A stretch of DNA of 33,196 bases from a virus (Duplodnaviria > Caudoviricetes), in IMG/VR virus record IMGVR_UViG_3300020045_002688, positions 1-33,196 of that record; one strand, 5' to 3'. Every line of letters starts with the position of its first letter. Positions within the stretch are counted from its first letter, which is position 1. Position numbers and translations under genes: made by a program. The notes under the pieces were generated by a model. That model was not told the DNA's origin. It saw only the letters and a program-made list of their open reading frames with translations, and searched no databases. Positions 23,540 to 33,196 of the stretch are shown here, piece after piece.

Positions 23540-25297
23540 ATGTCAAAAATCAGATTAACCAGTCCAACCTTCGACGCTTCGGCTCAAACTATTGTCCACC
23601 CATCATTTTCTGATGTCGGACTCGCGGGTATTCAGCTCATTACCAACGTCACAGACGGGGTAATTATCTATAACTTTGCTGACGCAACAAAAGGTGGTAC
23701 TCTCGCCACAGATACACTGACACTCGAATACGATACTACTTCGATGTCTGACACGGACGACTTGATGATTCTGGTTGAAGATGGATTACAGCAAACGGTC
23801 ACAGCCGAACTCTCAGCTACTGATAACGCGGTACTTGACGCTATCGAAGCCGATACAACAACCATCGCTTCATCTGTCTACACTGAGGGAGCAACCGACG
23901 CTTCTATCACAGGAGTTCCGGCTCTCATGGAGATTGCAGGAAACACACTCCACCCTCTTCAGGGGCAAGTGGCAAACGGCGGGTATGGTCTTACAACAAT
24001 TATTCCAGGCCACGTAAGTACTGACAACTCTACTACTTCCGTACTCGCTGGTGGTGCTGTGTTCACAGGAGCGTGGGAAGAAGTAACCAACCACGGTATT
24101 ATCGTAATAACCTTAAAAGCTAGTCACGCTTCTGCTACTGATGGTCTCTCTGTGCAGTTTAGTACTGACGGAACTAATATAGATAACACTGACGAGTTCA
24201 CGGTCGCAGCCGCAACTGGTAAGACCTTTAGCTTCCAAGCTGCCGCCAAGTACTTCCGTGTTGTATACACCAACGGTGCCACCCTTCAAACCTACTTCCG
24301 TCTCCAGACAATCCTCAAGCCGTCATATGCAAAGCCTTCAAGTCACCGTGTATCTGACTCTCTTTCACTCCAGGATGATGCCGAACTTGTAAAGGCAGTT
24401 ATCGCAGGAGAAACCACCGCAGGTGGTGGAGCATTCGTAAACGTAAAAGTTACCCCTTCAGGAGCCATCACCGGAGCCTTTCAGCTCAATGATGGAACCG
24501 ACACCGCGCTTGTAACAGCAGCGGGTGAACTTAACGTACTGGCAACTGCTCAGCCTGGAGTAGACGTCGGAGATGTAACAGTCAACAACGCAGCAGGGGC
24601 AAGTGCTGTAAATATCCAAGACGGTGGTAACTCAATTACAGTAGACGCTCCAGTGGGCACTCCAGCATTCGTACGTCTATCAGACGGGGCCGCTGCAATC
24701 ACTACTTTACCTGTATCTCTCGCCACAGTTCCATCTCACGCGGTAACTAACGCAGGAACATTTGCTGTTCAAGTCGATGGTTCAGCTCTTACTTCACTTC
24801 AACTCTTAGACGATACCGTCTTTGCGGATGACGCTGCTTTCACGCTCGGAACCTCTAAAGGTTCTGTGATGGAAGGAGTGGCGGTCAACATGGACGGTAC
24901 AGACCCCACCGCAGTCTCAGCCGAAGGCGATGCTGCGGCTGTCCGCACTGACCCTAACCGCATCCTTCTTGTAAACCAACCTCACCCACGATTCTTCCAT
25001 ATCTCAGCCGACTACGCCTCAGCTCAGACTAACGTATCAGTTAAAGCTGCTCCAGGTGCTTCTCTCTCTATTTACATCACGGATATTGTCCTCTCTAACG
25101 GAGCTACTGCTGGAAACATCACACTTCTGGATGGTTCTGGCGGAACAGTGCTCTTTGAGATTTACCCTGCCGTGAACGGTGGTGCTACTATGTCACTCCG
25201 TAACCCGATTAAATTAACAGCTAACACCGCCCTTTGCTTAACATCGACTACTGTCACAACACACAGCATCTTTGTAAGTGGGTATATCGCAGCATAA
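23540..25297 (+). CDS. mosaic tail fibre/appendage protein
   Basis: A/T/G/V-rich with modules TFDASAQTI...IIYNFAD and VNIQDGGNSITVD. Confidence 0.65.
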   Translation: MSKIRLTSPTFDASAQTIVHPSFSDVGLAGIQLITNVTDGVIIYNFADATKGGTLATDTLTLEYDTTSMSDTDDLMILVEDGLQQTVTAELSATDNAVLDAIEADTTTIASSVYTEGATDASITGVPALMEIAGNTLHPLQGQVANGGYGLTTIIPGHVSTDNSTTSVLAGGAVFTGAWEEVTNHGIIVITLKASHASATDGLSVQFSTDGTNIDNTDEFTVAAATGKTFSFQAAAKYFRVVYTNGATLQTYFRLQTILKPSYAKPSSHRVSDSLSLQDDAELVKAVIAGETTAGGGAFVNVKVTPSGAITGAFQLNDGTDTALVTAAGELNVLATAQPGVDVGDVTVNNAAGASAVNIQDGGNSITVDAPVGTPAFVRLSDGAAAITTLPVSLATVPSHAVTNAGTFAVQVDGSALTSLQLLDDTVFADDAAFTLGTSKGSVMEGVAVNMDGTDPTAVSAEGDAAAVRTDPNRILLVNQPHPRFFHISADYASAQTNVSVKAAPGASLSIYITDIVLSNGATAGNITLLDGSGGTVLFEIYPAVNGGATMSLRNPIKLTANTALCLTSTTVTTHSIFVSGYIAA

Positions 25298-25304
25298 ACC
25301 ATAT

Positions 25305-26090
25305 ATGTCTATTCAAAACCAAGCAGAATACCTCGGAGCTTCAAAACAAGTCATTACGTGGAATAAAACAGCCGCTCGAACAACAGTTGCTGCCGTTCCG
25401 TTCTCACTCTTTGACGTTGCCGGAAATCCAGGAGCAGGAACCCTCGCTGTAGGAAATACAGCTAATGGCGTAGTACCAACAGACGCAACAAACGGCTACC
25501 CCGCGATTAACACTATTACAGGTACAGGCCAGCTTACGAATGTTAACTTTGCTAACACGGTAGCTTCACGGCTTGCACTCTATGACCGTGTATTTAGTGC
25601 AGGAGCATACGCTTTTAACGCTAACACTACCCTTGCTTCACAGCCAAGCTTTTCAGGTCGAGTCCCGAACACAGACTTCAAAGGTCTCGAACTTTGGATT
25701 GAAGCAGCTACGGCCTTTACAGGCAACCTATCTGTACAAATCAACTACCTAGACCAGGATGGAAACGCTGGCGACACAGGAGTCGTAGCGACCGGAGCCG
25801 CACTCATTATCGGCCGTATGATGCGTATCCCGCTTGCGGCAGGCGACTCGGGTATCTCACAAATCAATCAAGTGCGTGGAACTGTGGCGACAGTTGGAAC
25901 CTTTAACGTTCATGTAATGCGTAAGCTGTGGGAAGGCCGCGTGCTTACAGCTAACGGCGGAGACCGCCACAATCTATACCGAATAGGAATCCCACAAGTG
26001 TACGACACCTCTGCACTGTTCGTCGTTTGCACAGCAGACTCAACATCATCAGGACTTCCAACCGTAGACATCGAAATTTCACAATCATAA
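25305..26090 (+). CDS. virion structural protein
   Basis: Beta-rich ORF in the fibre module. Confidence 0.6.
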   Translation: MSIQNQAEYLGASKQVITWNKTAARTTVAAVPFSLFDVAGNPGAGTLAVGNTANGVVPTDATNGYPAINTITGTGQLTNVNFANTVASRLALYDRVFSAGAYAFNANTTLASQPSFSGRVPNTDFKGLELWIEAATAFTGNLSVQINYLDQDGNAGDTGVVATGAALIIGRMMRIPLAAGDSGISQINQVRGTVATVGTFNVHVMRKLWEGRVLTANGGDRHNLYRIGIPQVYDTSALFVVCTADSTSSGLPTVDIEISQS

Positions 26091-26092
26091 AC

Positions 26093-26335
26093 ATGGAATC
26101 AAAGAAGATTACAATAAACAATAACGATTATGATGCAGATAAAATCGTGCCGTTTTTATTGAAGGTGAAAGCCCAAAACGCACAAGAAGAAGAGGAGTTT
26201 TTGGCTGAATACTACTTCGGTAGTGATATGTCTGCGTGGGTAGAAAAAATAATCGCAGATAAGAAATTGAGCCTTAATGACTATTTAAGGTTAGAAGGAG
26301 CAATTATTGACCCGATAGATATGTTAGAGGAATAA
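26093..26335 (+). CDS. hypothetical protein
   Basis: Tightly packed ORF. Confidence 0.65.
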   Translation: MESKKITINNNDYDADKIVPFLLKVKAQNAQEEEEFLAEYYFGSDMSAWVEKIIADKKLSLNDYLRLEGAIIDPIDMLEE

Positions 26336-26336
26336 T

Positions 26337-26996
26337 ATGGCTTGGGTAGCAGAAGATACATTTGAAGGAGCGACAGACGAAGCAAACCTTACCGCTTGGA
26401 GCGGAGGAACCGGATGGGCCGGTGCCTGGGTTAACGCAGCGACTAACTTAGAGCGCTCAGACACAGCGACCGCTTACGATGGGTCTGTTTCTGCGCGAGT
26501 TGTGTCAAATGCGGGAAACACTTTCTATACACGCACATTATCGTCCTCAACAACTTCTGGTGTTGTATATGTGGCGCTAAGTAAAAGCTCTACATCAGCC
26601 GGAGAAAATTCTTTTTCTCTGCGGTCTTCTGCGGGCGGGAGAGCTATTGTACGTTTAACCGCTGCCGGAAATTTGCAAGCGTTTGGTAGTTCAGGTGCAG
26701 TCAACTTGCTGGCAGGATTCACAGTTAATACATGGTATGTCGTTAGAATTACTTTTGATACAACAGCGGGCACATTTACAGCCGCATATTCCACTGGTGG
26801 GTATGGAACTGGAGGAACATTTGGTACTGAAAGTTCATCCATTACGATGTTTGGTTCTGGTGCCATTGACCGAGTGGGAGCTGGCGGTGACACAGGAGCA
26901 AACTCTTGGGTAGATTACATATCTGGCACAACCCCTTTTTCCGGAGGCGGCGGCTCCCCAACCCCCCTCCTAATGATGATGGGTATGGGTTCATAG
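26337..26996 (+). CDS. lectin/LamG-like receptor-binding candidate
   Basis: DTFE start, NTWYVVRITFD, VDYI; Gly linker then PLLMMMGMGS. Confidence 0.55.
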   Translation: MAWVAEDTFEGATDEANLTAWSGGTGWAGAWVNAATNLERSDTATAYDGSVSARVVSNAGNTFYTRTLSSSTTSGVVYVALSKSSTSAGENSFSLRSSAGGRAIVRLTAAGNLQAFGSSGAVNLLAGFTVNTWYVVRITFDTTAGTFTAAYSTGGYGTGGTFGTESSSITMFGSGAIDRVGAGGDTGANSWVDYISGTTPFSGGGGSPTPLLMMMGMGS

Positions 26997-27025
26997 TGCA
27001 TGGTATAATATACCTATTATTACTT

Positions 27026-27289
27026 ATGACCGAAGCTTATTCGACAAAGGAGATGCTCACCGAGATACGGTTAGACCAAAAGGAACACAACGAACGCTCT
27101 ATTCGTATGGAAGAGACACTCCTTGCCGTACTAGAACAGGCGAAGAAGACTAATGGTAGAATTACGGTGCTGGAGGCAAGCACCACCGCTTTAAAGGAAG
27201 AACACAACAAGTTCAAAACCGTAGTCAAGACGCTCTCCTCAATCGGTGCTGCTGGCTGGGCCTTCATCACTTTTATAGTAGATAAATAA
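27026..27289 (+). CDS. XhlA-like holin/lysis membrane protein
   Basis: Coiled coil, KKTNGRITVLE, C-terminal TM helix; promoter 27001-27009. Confidence 0.65.
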   Translation: MTEAYSTKEMLTEIRLDQKEHNERSIRMEETLLAVLEQAKKTNGRITVLEASTTALKEEHNKFKTVVKTLSSIGAAGWAFITFIVDK

Positions 27290-27292
27290 ACT

Positions 27293-28321
27293 ATGCAAAA
27301 ATTACTAGTGCTTACCGCTTCCAAAGACACGCTCTCTTGGCAGTCTTTATCAAACAAGCTGGCATACATAAAGAGCATTTTAAATACAGGCAATGGAGCA
27401 AACTTCACCGTAGACATTCAGTACACCCCAGCGATTCCGAAAATAACTGGCGAGCGCATCGACCACACTTGGCTCAATGATTTAATCCGGCCCCACTTTA
27501 ATAACGGGTACGACTTCATTTGTTTCCACTTTTCAGAAAAGCAAAAGAATGCCTGGGGAATCCGTCCCTCACTTCGAGGCAGTAACCCAGATACCGATGA
27601 TGAAATGGGTGACTTCTGGATTTCAGCCGATGAGCACACTGAGCGTCTTGGCTTCAATAGATTTGAGCAGGTGCTACTACACGAACTGGCGCATGAGTTT
27701 TTCCAGGAGACAAATCAAAAGGACATCACCCACGAATACCACGACAAGCACAAGAATATCGCGGGCCTCTACAGTGCCCTGGATTGGACAAAGTACCAAC
27801 CTCGTAGAATGGCACTCAAGAAGCAGAAAAACCTCTTAGAAACGATTGTGGCGGCTCTCAAGGCCCGTCTAGCAGCCAAGAAGGTAACGACATTGCTTCA
27901 CCCCGTAGAAAAGTACCGCAAACTCATTTCTCAAGAGTATGGAGTGGTCAACGCAAACTTCTACCCACAGACCGGACACCACATCGGGACAGACTACGCA
28001 TGCCCAGTCGGTACGCCAGTCCTTGCTCCCTGGAATGGCGAAGTTATCATCTCTGGCACATCACCAGCACTCGGTAACTTCTGTCACTACAAGTACACCT
28101 TCGATGGTGTGACATATGTGGCACGATTAATGCACCTATCAGACGTACCAACTAAAGCCAAATATAAACGAGGCGAGCTGATTGAACTGTCCGGGAAGAC
28201 TGGAAAGATAACAGGGCCACATTTGCACGTTGACCTCTGGTATAATGATGTCAGACTCGACCTCTTAACGGCAAAGAACTGGATGAATTTAACAATAGAC
28301 CCACAAAAACATTATGCTTAA
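27293..28321 (+). CDS. endolysin: N-terminal zincin plus C-terminal M23 peptidase
   Basis: LHELAH; HIGTD and GPHLH M23 motifs. Confidence 0.85.
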   Translation: MQKLLVLTASKDTLSWQSLSNKLAYIKSILNTGNGANFTVDIQYTPAIPKITGERIDHTWLNDLIRPHFNNGYDFICFHFSEKQKNAWGIRPSLRGSNPDTDDEMGDFWISADEHTERLGFNRFEQVLLHELAHEFFQETNQKDITHEYHDKHKNIAGLYSALDWTKYQPRRMALKKQKNLLETIVAALKARLAAKKVTTLLHPVEKYRKLISQEYGVVNANFYPQTGHHIGTDYACPVGTPVLAPWNGEVIISGTSPALGNFCHYKYTFDGVTYVARLMHLSDVPTKAKYKRGELIELSGKTGKITGPHLHVDLWYNDVRLDLLTAKNWMNLTIDPQKHYA

Positions 28322-28466
28322 AGGATACAAAACATACTCAGTAGTAGCTATTGCAGTCATCTACGCACTATCAGCCTTTGCTTACGGTGCAATAGACGGA
28401 GTACAAGCCTTTCAAATCTTATCCACAGCTTTGATGGGAGCAGGACTTCGAGACGCTATCAAGTAG
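28314..28466 (+). CDS. small holin, 50 aa
   Basis: MLKGYKTYSVVAIAVIYALSAF...ALMGAGLRDAIK, two hydrophobic helices. Confidence 0.75.
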   Translation: MLKGYKTYSVVAIAVIYALSAFAYGAIDGVQAFQILSTALMGAGLRDAIK

Positions 28467-28477
28467 TATAATGAAAG

Positions 28478-28536
28478 TGTCAGTTCCAAGCTGGCAGTCA
28501 TAATGGGACAAGCCACTCACACTCCGAGTGGTTTTT
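28478..28536 (+). ncRNA. candidate pseudoknot sRNA of about 60 nt
   Basis: TATAAT 28467-28472; TGTCAG/CTGGCA stem; loop TTCCA pairs TGGGA; terminator 28511-28536. Confidence 0.5.
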
Positions 28537-28566
28537 CTCTACTTGCGTCATGTTACAATTATTGTA

Positions 28567-28698
28567 ATGAAAAACGAATCAACTCCTGATTGGGATTCAT
28601 GGTACGAAGATACTCACGGCGGTACTAATAAAGCGTCTTGGGAATTAGATGATGATGAAATCCCAGACCATGACAAAATGGAAGACGAAGATGAATAA
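28567..28698 (+). CDS. very acidic 43-aa protein, leaderless
   Basis: TGTTACAAT 28551-28559; MKNESTPDWDSWYED...MEDEDE. Confidence 0.65.
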   Translation: MKNESTPDWDSWYEDTHGGTNKASWELDDDEIPDHDKMEDEDE

Positions 28699-28699
28699 G

Positions 28700-28734
28700 A
28701 AAAGCCGCACCTTCCACAGTGCGGCTAATCTTTT
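28700..28734. terminator. bidirectional terminator at the convergence point
   Basis: AAAAGCCGCAC-N8-GTGCGGCT. Confidence 0.8.
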
Positions 28735-29278
28735 ATTTGCTCCAGCAATGCTTTGACCATTTCCATGGTTCCAGACCTTGCTCATCATATAGCATTTTGG
28801 CGTACTTGATATTATCACTTGGATTATTCATATCAAGACCTAGTGCTTTTACCCTCTTTCCATGATGAAGGGTGGAGATTTGAAATAAACCCTTGTCCCC
28901 CGACCCATTAGTTGGGTTGTAAGCGTCTATATCGTATCCACCTTCACACCTCATTACTTTGAGCATAATTGGTGCATCAGGAAACGCTTTCATTACTTCT
29001 TGCTCAATTCGCGCCTTGTCCCAGTTGTACACCACTTCTATCCTCACCTCCTTCTTTGGCGGTACGACCACAGTAATCGCTTCGACTTCTGTGTATTCAT
29101 ACGCCTCTGCTATTTGAATATCAACTAATATTCCTCCTAACAACGTTGCAATAATCACCCATACTAATCCAACTCTAGATAACGTCCTGGGCTTAGACAG
29201 GCACTCATGTAGTGAGCTTTTTAAGCTGTCTAAATTATTGTGTTTTAAAATAAATACTGGTCTTAAACTAATAATCAT
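28733..29278 (-). CDS. membrane-anchored lytic transglycosylase (SLT/lysozyme-like); start uncertain
   Basis: TM helix; MRCEGG, GLFQI, NIKYA, PW...CW. Confidence 0.8.
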   Translation of the reverse strand: MIISLRPVFILKHNNLDSLKSSLHECLSKPRTLSRVGLVWVIIATLLGGILVDIQIAEAYEYTEVEAITVVVPPKKEVRIEVVYNWDKARIEQEVMKAFPDAPIMLKVMRCEGGYDIDAYNPTNGSGDKGLFQISTLHHGKRVKALGLDMNNPSDNIKYAKMLYDEQGLEPWKWSKHCWSK

Positions 29279-29412
29279 TCATGTATGGTGAATGACTTTC
29301 TGCGAGAGCGCAACGGCAGGGCACTATCCCTGCCGCACTTCTGCCTCTCGCTTGCCTACATTATACCGCGTTTTGGAGGGTGTAAATGACTAGGCTGTGG
29401 ATAGAGCGAGTG

Positions 29413-29613
29413 TCAAGATTTCTCAAACTCCAACACATCGCCCCACATCTCGTACACAAACGCCACCAGTCGTTCGTTCTCTCTATCGTGTAAATCTTCC
29501 TGGGTGATTCCTTTTAAATAATATCCTCGCTCTTGCAGTACCTTAAAAATATTTCGTTGGAACTGTAAAAACTTATAGTAATCTTTCTCGTTCATTTCGT
29601 GGGCTAAATCCAT
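29413..29613 (-). CDS. hypothetical protein, leaderless
   Basis: TATAAT ends 6 nt before ATG 29613. Confidence 0.65.
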   Translation of the reverse strand: MDLAHEMNEKDYYKFLQFQRNIFKVLQERGYYLKGITQEDLHDRENERLVAFVYEMWGDVLEFEKS

Positions 29614-29626
29614 AGCACCATTATAC

Positions 29627-29656
29627 AAACAAACCGCCCTAATTAAAGAGGCGGTC
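29627..29656 (-). terminator. intrinsic terminator
   Basis: GACCGCC...GGCGGTTTGTTT. Confidence 0.6.
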
Positions 29657-29664
29657 TGGGGATA

Positions 29665-29714
29665 AGAAAACCACTGGGTCGCGGTCCAGTGGCTCTCCTT
29701 CCCAGAGGCGGGAT
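29665..29714 (-). ncRNA. candidate sRNA of about 50 nt with exposed AGGAG
   Basis: TGCTACACT 29721-29729; TCCC/GGGA hairpin; terminator AGCCACTGG...CCAGTGGTTTT. Confidence 0.4.
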
Positions 29715-29735
29715 AGGTTTAGTGTAGCATATCCT

Positions 29736-29936
29736 TTAACTGGAGCAAGCCAAGCACTCCTCTTGGGGGGCACGATGTAACCGCACCACCGGCTTCTCAT
29801 TCGCAAAGAAGTCATCTAATGAACTTACTTGCGGCTCAAGATTAAAATAACCATCCTTTTTTAACTTCTCAACCTCTTCTTCTGATAATGTTTTAGTAAC
29901 CGTGGCTCCAGTGGGAGAGATAATTTTGTATGGCAT
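29736..29936 (-). CDS. 66-aa protein with C-terminal CxxC
   Basis: Ends EECLACSS; TATAAT 29948-29953. Confidence 0.7.
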   Translation of the reverse strand: MPYKIISPTGATVTKTLSEEEVEKLKKDGYFNLEPQVSSLDDFFANEKPVVRLHRAPQEECLACSS

Positions 29937-30029
29937 ATGAACCTACAATTATACAGGTTAAATAATCTCTCGAAAAATTAACTTACGGAAACTGTAGTAA
30001 CAAAAAACGAAACTAGGAATATGTAAATA

Positions 30030-30196
30030 TCAAACCCCCTGAGCTAGTAGGCTATATCAGGGGGCTTCGTATGACGCGTGCTGCATTACTGTCAGTAGAG
30101 GCGGTGTCTAGTGCACTTTAATCCCCTTCACGAGTAGTACGAACTCTTGTCGTGTTGGTGGCCTGTTTAGGTTGCTACTACAACCGTCAAGGCAAT
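30030..30196 (-). ncRNA. candidate structured RNA of about 165 nt
   Basis: TGTTATAAT 30203-30211; several hairpins; AGCCCCCTGA/TCAGGGGGTT terminator; no plausible ORF. Confidence 0.6.
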
Positions 30197-30212
30197 GAAA
30201 ATATTATAACAC

Positions 30213-30317
30213 AAAACCACCGTCGCGTGGTGGTTTGTGTTACTGGTGCCGTTATATTTCCGACAGTATAGTCCAGCTTTAGCACGCGTTCAAGCCATGC
30301 TCCGGGCCAATGCCCAT
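30213..30317 (-). ncRNA. candidate sRNA of about 105 nt, or mRNA for a 12-aa peptide
   Basis: TGATAAAAT 30324-30332; three hairpins; terminator 30213-30236. Confidence 0.45.
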
Positions 30318-30319
30318 GA

Positions 30320-30400
30320 CTACATTTTATCACGCCACACATGCCAGGCCAAGACTGGCAAGATAATTAAGAAGAAATAGAAGATGTCTGATATTTTCAT
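30320..30400 (-). CDS. 26-aa single-pass membrane peptide MKISDIFYFFLIILPVLAWHVWRDKM
   Basis: Hydrophobic core with charged ends. Confidence 0.5.
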   Translation of the reverse strand: MKISDIFYFFLIILPVLAWHVWRDKM

Positions 30401-30408
30401 AATAAGGC

Positions 30409-30431
30409 GTACCCACGTATGAGGTGGGTAC
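30409..30431 (-). terminator. hairpin closing the SD-led operon
   Basis: GTACCCAC-N7-GTGGGTAC; weak T tail. Confidence 0.55.
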
Positions 30432-30437
30432 TAGGTT

Positions 30438-30611
30438 TCAGTCCTTTGTCTTCCAGACTGAGGTGGTTTGGTTATGGATAGAGTTAATCGAGTGGCTGTA
30501 GACAAACGTAGGGTCAAAGTCACATTTTCCCTTGCAGGAGATGAGAGTGACCACGCCGGTCTCATCAGAGAGCACGGCGTAGCATTTGCAGAGCTTACAA
30601 ACGACTTTCAC
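30438..30611 (-). CDS. 57-aa Cys-rich protein (MKVVCKLCKC...CKGKC)
   Basis: GTGA overlap, SD-like GGGAGAGG. Confidence 0.6.
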   Translation of the reverse strand: MKVVCKLCKCYAVLSDETGVVTLISCKGKCDFDPTFVYSHSINSIHNQTTSVWKTKD

Positions 30612-30904
30612 GGCACCTCTCCCTTTGGTTGCGATGCGTCCGACTCATCGAATAAACAATGGGCAGATTGCTTCCGAGCGCGAAGGCAGAGATGCTCCAT
30701 GAAGGTCTTGACGATTGCGTGGTAAAACGCTCGCGGCATTTGTTCATATTGGGGTATATACCTTTCGAGTTCGATGTGACACGTTGCACAGATTGGGAGC
30801 ACATGATTATTATTCTTGCGACCCCAAAATCTCCTGGGAAAGATGTGATGATGCGTGGCGGGCTTCCGTTCATCGCACCCAGGGCAGGTTATGATGGGTC
30901 GCAT
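30608..30904 (-). CDS. small HNH endonuclease-like protein, 98 aa
   Basis: CPGC...THHHIFP...ICATCH; SD AGGAGG before ATG 30904. Confidence 0.75.
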   Translation of the reverse strand: MRPIITCPGCDERKPATHHHIFPRRFWGRKNNNHVLPICATCHIELERYIPQYEQMPRAFYHAIVKTFMEHLCLRARKQSAHCLFDESDASQPKGEVP

Positions 30905-30912
30905 AATTCCTC

Positions 30913-31035
30913 CTAGCTGCAATACTCGCAGTTGCACCACATTGGGTGATAGCGAAGTAGCCATTTCCGATAGCGAAACTCTTTCGAGAAACGCTTGTGT
31001 GAATACCCTCCAGTGAGGGGTAGCTCAAGTTGCAT
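30913..31035 (-). CDS. 40-aa protein with N-terminal QLELPL and C-terminal HxxxCxCxxC
   Basis: TGATG-coupled; stop abuts the next SD. Confidence 0.6.
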   Translation of the reverse strand: MQLELPLTGGYSHKRFSKEFRYRKWLLRYHPMWCNCEYCS

Positions 31036-31100
31036 CAGCCCTTCCTTCCGTACCAAAAGCCCAGAAAGAAAGCGGCAACAACAGTTAAGGTGGCAATCAT
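31035..31100 (-). CDS. 21-aa membrane peptide MIATLTVVAAFFLGFWYGRKG
   Basis: SD AAGGAG; coupled on both sides. Confidence 0.6.
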   Translation of the reverse strand: MIATLTVVAAFFLGFWYGRKG

Positions 31101-31101
31101 G

Positions 31102-31275
31102 TTACTCTCCTTTTGTGAGGCGGTCATAGTGGTCTCGACGGTTGATTTCTTCATCAGAAAACATACCTTGAAACAAAGCGTCTGCATCGCGGCAACCGTA
31201 TGAACAGTACACTGGCTTTGGACGCTTGGTCTTGGCTTCGAGAATCTTGTTGCACCAACTACAGCATCTTTTCAT
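31102..31275 (-). CDS. 57-aa treble-clef zinc finger, YacG-like
   Basis: CSWC-x15-CSYGC; purine-rich SD region. Confidence 0.65.
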   Translation of the reverse strand: MKRCCSWCNKILEAKTKRPKPVYCSYGCRDADALFQGMFSDEEINRRDHYDRLTKGE

Positions 31276-31286
31276 CTCCTCTATCC

Positions 31287-31322
31287 TTTCAATGTACGAT
31301 GGTCTTCTCTGTAATTATACCA
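31287..31322 (-). promoter_or_regulatory. extended -10 promoter plus boxA-like element
   Basis: TGGTATAAT 31314-31322; GTACATTGAAA 31287-31297. Confidence 0.55.
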
Positions 31323-32216
31323 CTACAGCGGCATCAGAATGTTGATAGGAAGCTTCCCGTTGTTCATAACTACCGCTACACCAATTGCTGGTTTCCCGTA
31401 GTCTTTGGCGTAGGTCATAGCATAAGCGTTCTTGTCAACACCACATCCGACTTGAGTTCCAAAGATGTGAAAGTTGGAGCCTACCAAGTGCTCTGTGTAC
31501 GCTTGAGTATGTAAGTGGCCTTGTACGGTGCTCATTAAGTCCTTCTTACAACGAGCGCGGGCTGTTCCTCCTTCTCCATGAATGTACTGCACACCGTCGT
31601 AGACTTGTCGTTCTTTGAAGTTCCAACCTGGGACACCAAACATATCTTGGTAGCCTAGAATCCAGCGCCTAGGGATTCCACCAGTAAATGCTTTACGCAT
31701 AATCAGACGGTCATGGTTGCCAATTATCACATCAGCTTTAGGAAATGCTTTGTACCACTTAGCTAAATTATCTATAGCTTCATCTAGTTCATCTCCTGCA
31801 CTCATACCATCCGCGTCACTCTCGTGATAACTAATAGCGTGGTTGTCTACGATGTCTCCAATAAAGACAACGTGGGTGCATTTGTATTTCTTGTACGTGT
31901 CAATGCAGAACTCTAGGTATCCTTCAAGTGTAAAAGGTTCGTGCAAGTCACCAATTATTAAAACTGTCTCTGTGTTAGGTGGGGGTGAGATGTACTCTTC
32001 TTTTCTTTCTGATTTAAACTTTTTCTTCTCTGGAGTGTCGGATTTAAGTACAATGGTGTATCGCTTCTTCGCGCGTCTTACACCGCCCTGTACCGTGTCA
32101 TACGAAACATTAAAACGGTTGGCTAAATCACTAATAGTAAATTGGTTTGGATTGAGTTCTATAAACTCGATAATCTGGCGTAACTTTTCACTTTTAAAAT
32201 TGAATTGTTCACTCAT
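31323..32216 (-). CDS. metallophosphoesterase with N-terminal HTH, leaderless
   Basis: GDLH, GDIVD, GNHD, HG, GHLH; TGGTATACT-N6-ATG. Confidence 0.9.
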   Translation of the reverse strand: MSEQFNFKSEKLRQIIEFIELNPNQFTISDLANRFNVSYDTVQGGVRRAKKRYTIVLKSDTPEKKKFKSERKEEYISPPPNTETVLIIGDLHEPFTLEGYLEFCIDTYKKYKCTHVVFIGDIVDNHAISYHESDADGMSAGDELDEAIDNLAKWYKAFPKADVIIGNHDRLIMRKAFTGGIPRRWILGYQDMFGVPGWNFKERQVYDGVQYIHGEGGTARARCKKDLMSTVQGHLHTQAYTEHLVGSNFHIFGTQVGCGVDKNAYAMTYAKDYGKPAIGVAVVMNNGKLPINILMPL

Positions 32217-32240
32217 ACCAAAAGTATACCATCCGTCAAC

Positions 32241-32441
32241 TTAGATAACTCCCTTTATACACACCTTGCAAAGCTTTTCATCATAGTAGGTGTAGAAGCC
32301 GTGAACGCTATCACCGCCATACTGAGAGACCGTACACTTTCTTTTACACTGGTCACAGATAGCAGGCTCTCGAATTAGTACGCCTTTTTCTGGGATTGGA
32401 GCCACTAGCTTACTCTTACCTCTTGCATTAGTCGCGTTCAT
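32241..32441 (-). CDS. small Zn-finger protein
   Basis: CDQC...CKVC; ATGA-coupled start at 32441. Confidence 0.6.
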   Translation of the reverse strand: MNATNARGKSKLVAPIPEKGVLIREPAICDQCKRKCTVSQYGGDSVHGFYTYYDEKLCKVCIKGVI

Positions 32442-32527
32442 ACTTTCTTTGTTTTCTTCTTTGATAAAGGACACGGAGATAGGACTAAACCTTTCTTGTA
32501 ATTTTTACATCTTAAGCATTCGCACAT
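32438..32527 (-). CDS. 29-aa basic Cys-rich peptide (MCECLRCK...)
   Basis: Tight coupling on both sides. Confidence 0.5.
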   Translation of the reverse strand: MCECLRCKNYKKGLVLSPCPLSKKKTKKV

Positions 32528-32528
32528 G

Positions 32529-32642
32529 CTATATATCGTAGCACATCTCTACCTTCTGGCTGAGTAGCTCTTTGGGGATACAGCCCGACTGGATGTAGTT
32601 AGCGAGGGTATAAGCGAGGGTGAGGGAAATGATGGTTGTCAT
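32529..32642 (-). CDS. 37-aa hypothetical peptide
   Basis: Tight coupling on both sides. Confidence 0.5.
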   Translation of the reverse strand: MTTIISLTLAYTLANYIQSGCIPKELLSQKVEMCYDI

Positions 32643-32643
32643 A

Positions 32644-32859
32644 CTATTCCTTTACACATTTAACTGTGCCGCCATCATTCATATCAGAAATAATGGAAAG
32701 TCCATCAGGACACATCGGGAGCGATTCTGCCGGAAAAAACGTGAAGTAAGTTCTTATACCAAAACCAAAGCTTGCTCCAATTACACATCCTGTAATCGCC
32801 ATTTTTACTATTAAGGCAAGAACTTCATCTAAGGTAACTTCAATACTTTCTGTTGTCAT
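32644..32859 (-). CDS. small membrane protein
   Basis: TM helix followed by a Cys pair. Confidence 0.6.
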   Translation of the reverse strand: MTTESIEVTLDEVLALIVKMAITGCVIGASFGFGIRTYFTFFPAESLPMCPDGLSIISDMNDGGTVKCVKE

Positions 32860-32867
32860 ACTCTCTC

Positions 32868-33194
32868 TTACTCTGATAAATCTACATCGTACTTTTGAGC
32901 GATGGCCTTTGCATCACTACAAATCGGACCTTCGGCACACTGTCGACACCATGAGAAATGGTTACAAGTTTCCTTTACTGCTTCCATTTTTTCCCTATCA
33001 TACTCGTCGGCTTGGGACTTTAGGGTGGTGCGGAGCTTGTCTCGCCATGCTTTTTGAAAATCTCGTTTGTTAATGATGGCACCGTTAAAGACTAAGTCCT
33101 CGGTCAGTTTCCAAATCTCGTCAAACTCCTCTACAATATTTTCGATTGGGGTGTGTTTGTTTTGTTCTTCTAATCGCTTTACAAGGTCAGCTGT
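32868..33194 (-). CDS. hypothetical early protein, 5' truncated by the window
   Basis: Open frame to the edge (...ENIVEEFDEIW...KYDVDLSE*). Confidence 0.65.
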   Translation of the reverse strand, partial: TADLVKRLEEQNKHTPIENIVEEFDEIWKLTEDLVFNGAIINKRDFQKAWRDKLRTTLKSQADEYDREKMEAVKETCNHFSWCRQCAEGPICSDAKAIAQKYDVDLSE

Positions 33195-33196
33195 TT

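Follow-up and report, generated by a model that had tools for sequence, protein, structure and literature searches.

Which ribosomes read an operon of micro-proteins whose every start has a Shine-Dalgarno (SD) sequence when it sits in a phage whose other genes start without one? We studied this question for the complete virus record IMGVR_UViG_3300020045_002688, i.e., the whole stretch of 33,196 bases referred to as the window in the following. Its genes are those of a podovirus-like phage and comprise terminase, portal, capsid, DnaB/DnaD-like replication, glycosyltransferase and M23 lysis genes. The initial annotation had described an SD-led operon in an SD-free genome; the SD contrast stands, while the DNA is that of a phage and not a cellular genome. 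On the minus strand, a 239-aa ORF (718-1437) overlaps the cytosine methyltransferase gene (425-1498) in a different frame.

Pairing energies of the start regions were computed with a canonical 16S tail that ends in CCUCCUUUCU. Among 39 hand-curated core starts, the strongest pairing is -6.9 kcal/mol and the median is -1.5 kcal/mol, while the five cassette starts (c1 to c5) reach -9.4, -9.3, -12.0, -11.0 and -9.2 kcal/mol, respectively. That is, the energies separate 5/5 cassette starts from all core starts. When a shorter anti-SD tail is used, the cassette ranges from -5.7 to -10.2 and no core start (0/39) reaches -7 (Mann-Whitney p=2e-4). Core starts are rich in A, and in 28/39 a T occupies position -1. 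Among them, GGAG or GAGG is observed at start 26337 only, which agrees with its earlier description as a partial exception.

The cassette is located on the minus strand directly after the metallophosphoesterase gene, and its ORFs abut or overlap. All five tightly coupled ORFs of the initial annotation are present at the given lengths and with the leaders quoted for them (Table 1), and four are indeed Cys-rich (5, 0, 3, 6 and 5 Cys residues in c1 to c5). The leader motif said to resemble rRNA boxA is likewise found at 31297-31287. The usable SD of c1 is GAAAGGA, which overlaps the end of this motif; the GAGGAG adjoining the c1 ATG is spaced too closely for SD use. Of 19 extended -10-like sites in the phage, the one at 31322 alone (1/19) is followed by the boxA-like motif. 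Three matches of the motif occur in the window, where 1/3, the cassette's own, is preceded by a promoter. Hairpins are also found 3' of c4 in two further loci, L119 and L123. Bacteroidetes, for which a different promoter form is typical, were rejected as host because the promoters of the phage are of the TGnTATAAT type. Just downstream of the cassette, a structured intergenic stretch (30200-30345, minus strand, z -2.8) lies between two promoter-like sites; no Rfam family was matched in the window, including this stretch. A look-up of sequencing runs for positions 24000-33196 gave none, which speaks neither for nor against the cassette.

Table 1. Features of the cassette in window coordinates.
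Feature	Positions	Strand	Description
Extended -10 promoter-like site TGGTATAAT	31314..31322	-	right after the metallophosphoesterase stop; site shared with orthologue L119
boxA-like motif GTACATTGAAA	31287..31297	-	16 nt after the extended -10; overlaps the first SD
c1	31102..31275	-	57 aa, CxxC...CSxGC zinc-binding-type protein
c2	31035..31100	-	21 aa, hydrophobic, likely single membrane helix
c3	30913..31035	-	40 aa, N-terminal QLELPL, Cys-rich C-terminus
c4	30608..30904	-	98 aa, minimal HNH-like zinc-binding protein
c5	30438..30611	-	57 aa, Cys-rich, GTG start coupled to the c4 stop
Terminator-like hairpin, 8-bp	30409..30431	-	z -2.4; weak U-tail; closes the unit

With regard to the identity of the box, promoter and box are placed directly 5' of an Rfam tmRNA in 5/11 phage loci checked (4 distinct). 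In L151, L156, L160, L166 and L172, a TATAAT promoter and a GTTCWTTGAAA box precede the tmRNA at a distance of few bases, and L166 and L172 additionally carry a GOLLD RNA. A strict box match is also found in 4/15 Patescibacteria rRNA leaders (e.g., GTACATTGACA in G386). These 15 include four genomes whose anti-SD is missing or whose tail is altered, and 0/4 of them have the match. At the level of sequence, the occurrence before tmRNA and rRNA supports an identity as boxA, though non-uniformly. NusB is encoded in 46/48 Patescibacteria genomes, including G001-G003, i.e., the three MAGs discussed below for the related phage contigs they hold. Near-full-length Rho is encoded in 12/48. Since Rho was not found in G001-G003 or in a further genome, G327 (all incomplete genomes), the earlier idea of a boxA that shields the transcript from Rho is unsupported for the likely phage host.

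A known leader of similar layout is that of E. coli suhB, where, according to the accessible part of the report, translation is repressed by a boxA located 6 nt away from the SD (PMC5725501). The cassette resembles it in that a boxA-like motif lies few nt from an mRNA SD and that the likely host group has NusB. It is unlike suhB as far as the repression there, in the same partial source, ends in Rho termination, while Rho is not found in the likely hosts. Furthermore, the box is of type GTWCWTTGAAA in the cassette vs. GYTCTTTAANA in the comparison with the suhB system, and a boxA function is putative here.

An orthologous cassette is found in L119 behind the same phosphoesterase gene, where the c1 slot differs, c5 is missing, and all four shared slots have an SD-like leader. 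Between both cassettes, we find dN 0.30 and dS 0.74 for c2, dN 0.18 and dS 1.39 for c3, and dN 0.23 with saturated dS for c4. Judged by these substitution patterns, c2-c4 are under purifying selection. The cassette ORFs are, c5 excepted, real genes. The SD of c4 has itself changed from AGGAGGA in the window to GGAGGTA in L119, where pairing is still -10.7.

Phage morons are autonomous promoter-ORF-terminator units. The cassette is like them in having its own promoter, a hairpin end, swappable small genes, a patchy presence and a slightly different GC content, and unlike them in using an SD signal that is unused by the rest of the phage and cannot be paired by the likely host, as well as in the boxA-like site at the first SD. 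It could be a moron imported from SD-using phages or relatives, with SDs that are leftovers and ORFs that the phage host translates without use of an SD. The GC content of such cassettes exceeds that of the remaining locus in 12/13 cases, c4 is found in two SD-using contexts (L530 and L536, 2/20 loci) and without SD in L528, genes are swapped between orthologous cassettes, and the presence of the cassette among related phages is patchy, all of which fits an import. Nevertheless, we consider this explanation improbable: SDs that are not used are expected to decay across such a divergence, while they are kept in all four slots shared with L119 despite synonymous sites near or at saturation, and homologs at 33-55% identity in the chromosomal family of G327 (see below) retain theirs as well. 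Of the earlier proposal that the cassette was imported from an SD-using organism, the c4 genes in SD-using loci remain in agreement; a simple recent import is weakened because c2-c4 are selected and their SDs are kept at this level of divergence.

Recurrence was assessed on 20 non-redundant c4 loci gathered by protein similarity alone. In 16/20 loci, the c4 homolog is preceded by an SD of -7 kcal/mol or lower; promoter, box and SD together are found in 6/20, and box plus SD in one more. In the close relative G513 (terminase 69% identical), the c4 homolog has an AT-rich leader and no SD. In 2.57 Mb of sequence assembled without use of the box motif, the real box is found between a -10 site and an SD start 5 times, compared to a mean of 0.32 and a maximum of 2 for 60 shuffled boxes; c4 loci account for 4/5 of these links. 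Survey of homologous cassettes, as had been suggested, finds the combination of SD and boxA retained.

Among seven capsid-related records, 3/7 have an SD cluster (G506, G507 and G001:C68), while none is clear in G505, G508, G510 and G511. The strict cassette pattern gave 0/5 in capsid-related records, and G506 and G507 emerged under a looser reading: G507 has a full promoter-box-SD unit with at least 6 SD-led ORFs, and G506 and G001:C68 show looser versions. The phage contig of G001 carries a promoter/loose-box/SD cassette of small ORFs 3' of its lysis gene. The same layout with small Cys-rich or HNH-like genes is observed in further SD-poor phages (L252, L269, L274, L286, L301, L307, L313, L317), which were selected by motif; loci chosen by motif scans are excluded from independent support. 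A loose motif scan of viral contigs yielded about 170 matches, and the 120 of them that were listed are mostly chance, tmRNA leaders and SD-using phages, with a minority of cassettes. For the 109 loci of a second motif scan, background SD use is measurable only at loci with flanks fetched.

Who could translate such genes depends on the 16S tail of the host. Relatives of the capsid protein are found in 3/185,579 species genomes, all of Patescibacteria type, where one record is titled 'bacterium' (63%) and two are titled Saccharibacteria (48%). The capsid-related contigs are separate phage contigs binned into MAGs of 0.6-0.7 Mb, such that the link from the window phage to a likely host runs via the binning of its relatives, which is fallible. 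The closest MAG is G001 (MCP identity 63-65%). In the G001 family, the anti-SD is absent in 26/26 readable 16S tails (from 61 genomes), such that the proposed inspection of the 16S 3' end reveals a likely host family without anti-SD. Against the two tail types of this family, the cassette SDs reach only -0.7 to -4.6 kcal/mol, and a search for uL1 gave no match in G001-G003. A Parcubacteria subgroup without anti-SD and without uL1 is described in the accessible parts of two papers (PMC9297842; PMC10783764). The MAGs holding the related phage contigs are like this subgroup as characterized there, and we infer that the host belongs to it. Within their accessible parts, both papers (PMC9297842; PMC10783764) report the loss, not retained SD-led genes or phage cassettes.

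Most of the Patescibacteria tails read (from the phylum of G003) keep CCUCC, and six have fully lost it (G164, G179, G181, G198, G327, G366). Given the former, the phage's own host might keep a working anti-SD and translate the cassette itself, with SDs marking a separately controlled class of genes, a boxA that times or represses as at suhB, and proteins that act on this same host. SD-like leaders on some conserved Patescibacteria genes, the near-ubiquitous NusB together with the suhB precedent (accessible part of PMC5725501), and the use of an SD for one regulated gene in Bacteroidia (PMC13000453, in part) are in line with such a scenario. We still rate it as rather unlikely, given that the three MAGs have no detectable uL1 and the family of the closest one has no anti-SD; in addition, it leaves the persistence of SD-led genes in anti-SD-less families unexplained. 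The Bacteroidia differ in this respect: in the available portions of the respective studies (PMC13000453, PMC7797042), these SD-blind bacteria use an SD only on rpsU and mask their anti-SD by bS21. They are like the phage in combining an SD-free genome with a small strong-SD exception, and unlike it in that the 16S of the likely host family lacks an anti-SD instead of having a masked one (compared with the same partial sources, PMC13000453, PMC7797042).

We also evaluated SD-led genes in Patescibacteria chromosomes. The promoter-box-GGAG pattern gives 35 matches in 31/401 genomes of the phylum of G003, mostly before orphan genes, compared to 2 for a reversed-pattern control, which is blind to ordinary promoter-plus-SD genes such that we rely on the shuffled-box control instead. 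In the family of G327, the anti-SD is lost in 23/24 tails, and the exception has a helix-45 sequence unlike the family. Here, RAAAGGAGGTR-N2-9-ATG is found in 37/43 genomes, with 125 matches vs. 11 reversed-pattern controls. The 11 SDs tested in G327 pair at -8.9 to -19.1 with the canonical tail and at -1.8 to -4.8 with G327's own. Among 327 long genes in 400 kb of G327, 4 have GGAGG at SD distance, while 19 SD-led ORFs of at least 30 aa are listed for these 400 kb, none of which was recognised as a core gene. In two homolog pairs of the family (55% and 33% identical), both members have the SD; in a third pair, one has. The strict box was found in 0/32 SD leaders of this family, and box plus SD gave one match in 5 anti-SD-less genomes. 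No perfect SD start was found in G001 (0), and G181 showed no excess over the control.

In a further genome, G353, the 16S tail is without CCUCC (ACUUCUUA), and on its contig G353:C3 (L438:6446-9363) genes for thymidylate synthase, a dCMP-deaminase-like, a cytidylyltransferase-like and an HIT protein are SD-led while neighbouring core genes are without SD; such nucleotide-metabolism genes would fit expression in a partner cell. In G281:C123 (L424-L426), units of box plus SD occur in tandem at a distance of about 0.7 kb, and 4/4 promoter-box sites in G092 are followed by SD starts.

The reader of the motif might also reside within the same cell without being the 16S tail, namely a small RNA with CCUCCUUUC, a minority ribosome, or a protein that binds GGA to sort or silence these mRNAs. 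No transfer between cells would be necessary then, and a long and exact motif in anti-SD-less families suits a dedicated reader. Then again, the motif lies 4-11 nt from the start codon, which is the spacing of a 30S anti-SD, and G327 showed an anti-SD-less tail only, with no CCUCCUUUC within 300 nt after the 16S end. As we moreover know of no candidate for such a reader, we regard it as highly improbable.

The cassette is most likely translated by the ribosomes of another cell, plausibly of a microbe parasitised by the Patescibacteria host, and not by the likely host itself, a reading to which we give evenly balanced credence. Evidence for foreign translation comes from the cassette architecture, its recurrence in SD-poor phages, the selection on c2-c4, and the SD-led genes in anti-SD-less families. 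Because selected genes keep a signal of the 30S-anti-SD type, a foreign ribosome is the simplest reader if the host is without that sequence. The initial annotation had speculated on an mRNA tuned to the ribosomes of the host's host; the absent anti-SD of the G001 family and the SDs kept by the cassettes speak for it, and the tuning itself would hold only if the phage host is indeed of this kind.

Patescibacteria live attached to other cells, and the mRNA (or DNA) would have to cross from the Patescibacteria cell into its attached partner. The route may be the same as for the SD-led genes of Patescibacteria themselves, with a relaxase-less T4SS as one candidate. In the accessible part of a recent survey, the T4SS of Patescibacteria are widespread, mostly without relaxase, and thought to be co-opted (PMC12102498); we find the T4SS component PrgI/VirB3 in 4/5 genomes tested. 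Where the transcript is made and left untranslated, it might be handled by NusB/S10 at the boxA. Inside the recipient, the cargo would be aimed at DNA replication via a peptide predicted to bind the clamp, an HNH-like protein and possibly a YacG-like protein. It may stall or cleave the DNA of the recipient cell, thereby freeing nucleotides for phage replication, which is the most speculative step. More generally, and only tentatively since we would rather lean against it, Patescibacteria may export mRNA (or DNA) to the cells they parasitise, addressed by SDs and unreadable to their own ribosomes, and phages may use this channel to place replication-blocking micro-proteins into cells they never infect.

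No title or abstract on SD/boxA cassettes in Patescibacteria phages, or on partner ribosomes that translate Patescibacteria genes, was found in the literature searched, which covered few subscription papers. New here are the phage form, the retention of SDs under selection across saturated divergence, the family-wide counts, and the replication-directed cargo. The reading bears on how Patescibacteria manipulate their carrier cells. If translation by partner cells holds true, the SD is a sequence tag that lists candidate Patescibacteria effectors genome-wide, and the relaxase-less T4SS gains candidate cargo. It would also represent a three-level parasitism with cross-cell gene expression, i.e., a virus that manipulates the host of its host. 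Even under the alternatives, a new explanation is needed for cells that have neither anti-SD nor Rho and yet keep a conserved class of SD/boxA genes.

Finally, we evaluated the cassette proteins. For c1, a homolog (47% identical) heads a promoter-boxA-SD cassette in L534, while a word-index search gave no homolog for c1 or c3. One Atlas cluster for c1 carries a YacG label on 14% (score 0.90). An identity as YacG gyrase inhibitor was not confirmed: c1 has no match in Pfam, NCBIfam or PDB (structure model pLDDT 54); the Atlas resemblance remains a lead.

The N-terminus of c3, QLELPL, matches the sliding-clamp-binding hexapeptide Q-phi-x-L-x-L, and similar N-termini are QLELSL in L119, QLNLPL in L534 and QLELPL in the c4 homolog P0003. 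According to the accessible part of a preprint, this hexapeptide binds clamps in Hda and Pol IV and is weak on the B. subtilis clamp (bioRxiv 10.64898/2026.05.27.728225). The start of c3 is like QLSLPL of Hda as given there (bioRxiv 10.64898/2026.05.27.728225), and unlike in Hda and Pol IV the motif heads a 40-aa phage peptide whose clamp binding is a model prediction. When modeled with E. coli DnaN as a stand-in clamp, c3 scores 0.69 compared to 0.00 for the best of 3 controls, which passes a mark reached by 51/78 solved and 2/108 mismatched pairs but may reflect model memory since similar clamp-peptide complexes are already solved. Residues 1-12 are placed in the known peptide pocket, with a run-to-run contact agreement of at least 72% and a partner pLDDT of at least 49. 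We thus treat c3 as a predicted clamp binder. In P0003, a c4-family domain directly follows the QLELPL peptide, a fusion that would tether the HNH-like domain to the clamp.

The c4 family comprises 559 clusters, and its CxxC...HH...N...CxxCH motif is near-invariant across 82 sequences. Used as lone query, c4 retrieved no viral locus, while alignment queries did. It matches Pfam HNH_5 with E 0.004, and its homolog P0003 passes the HNH cut-off. The structure model has a pLDDT of 92 with McrA, Cap5 and Gme HNH as best folds, all weak (E above 0.1). By motif and weak fold likeness, c4 is HNH-like and a putative nuclease. Within 401 Patescibacteria-type genomes, the family yields only 9 weak generic HNH matches. 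The least secure ORF is c5, which is so far unverified: beside its SD, Atlas recognition is low, no homolog was found, and the cassette of L119 is without it. A second small HNH-like family (R..HH...S.GG.N...NI..V....H.A.H.LF) is observed in SD cassettes of the unrelated contigs L274, L286, L313, L317, L325 and L343.
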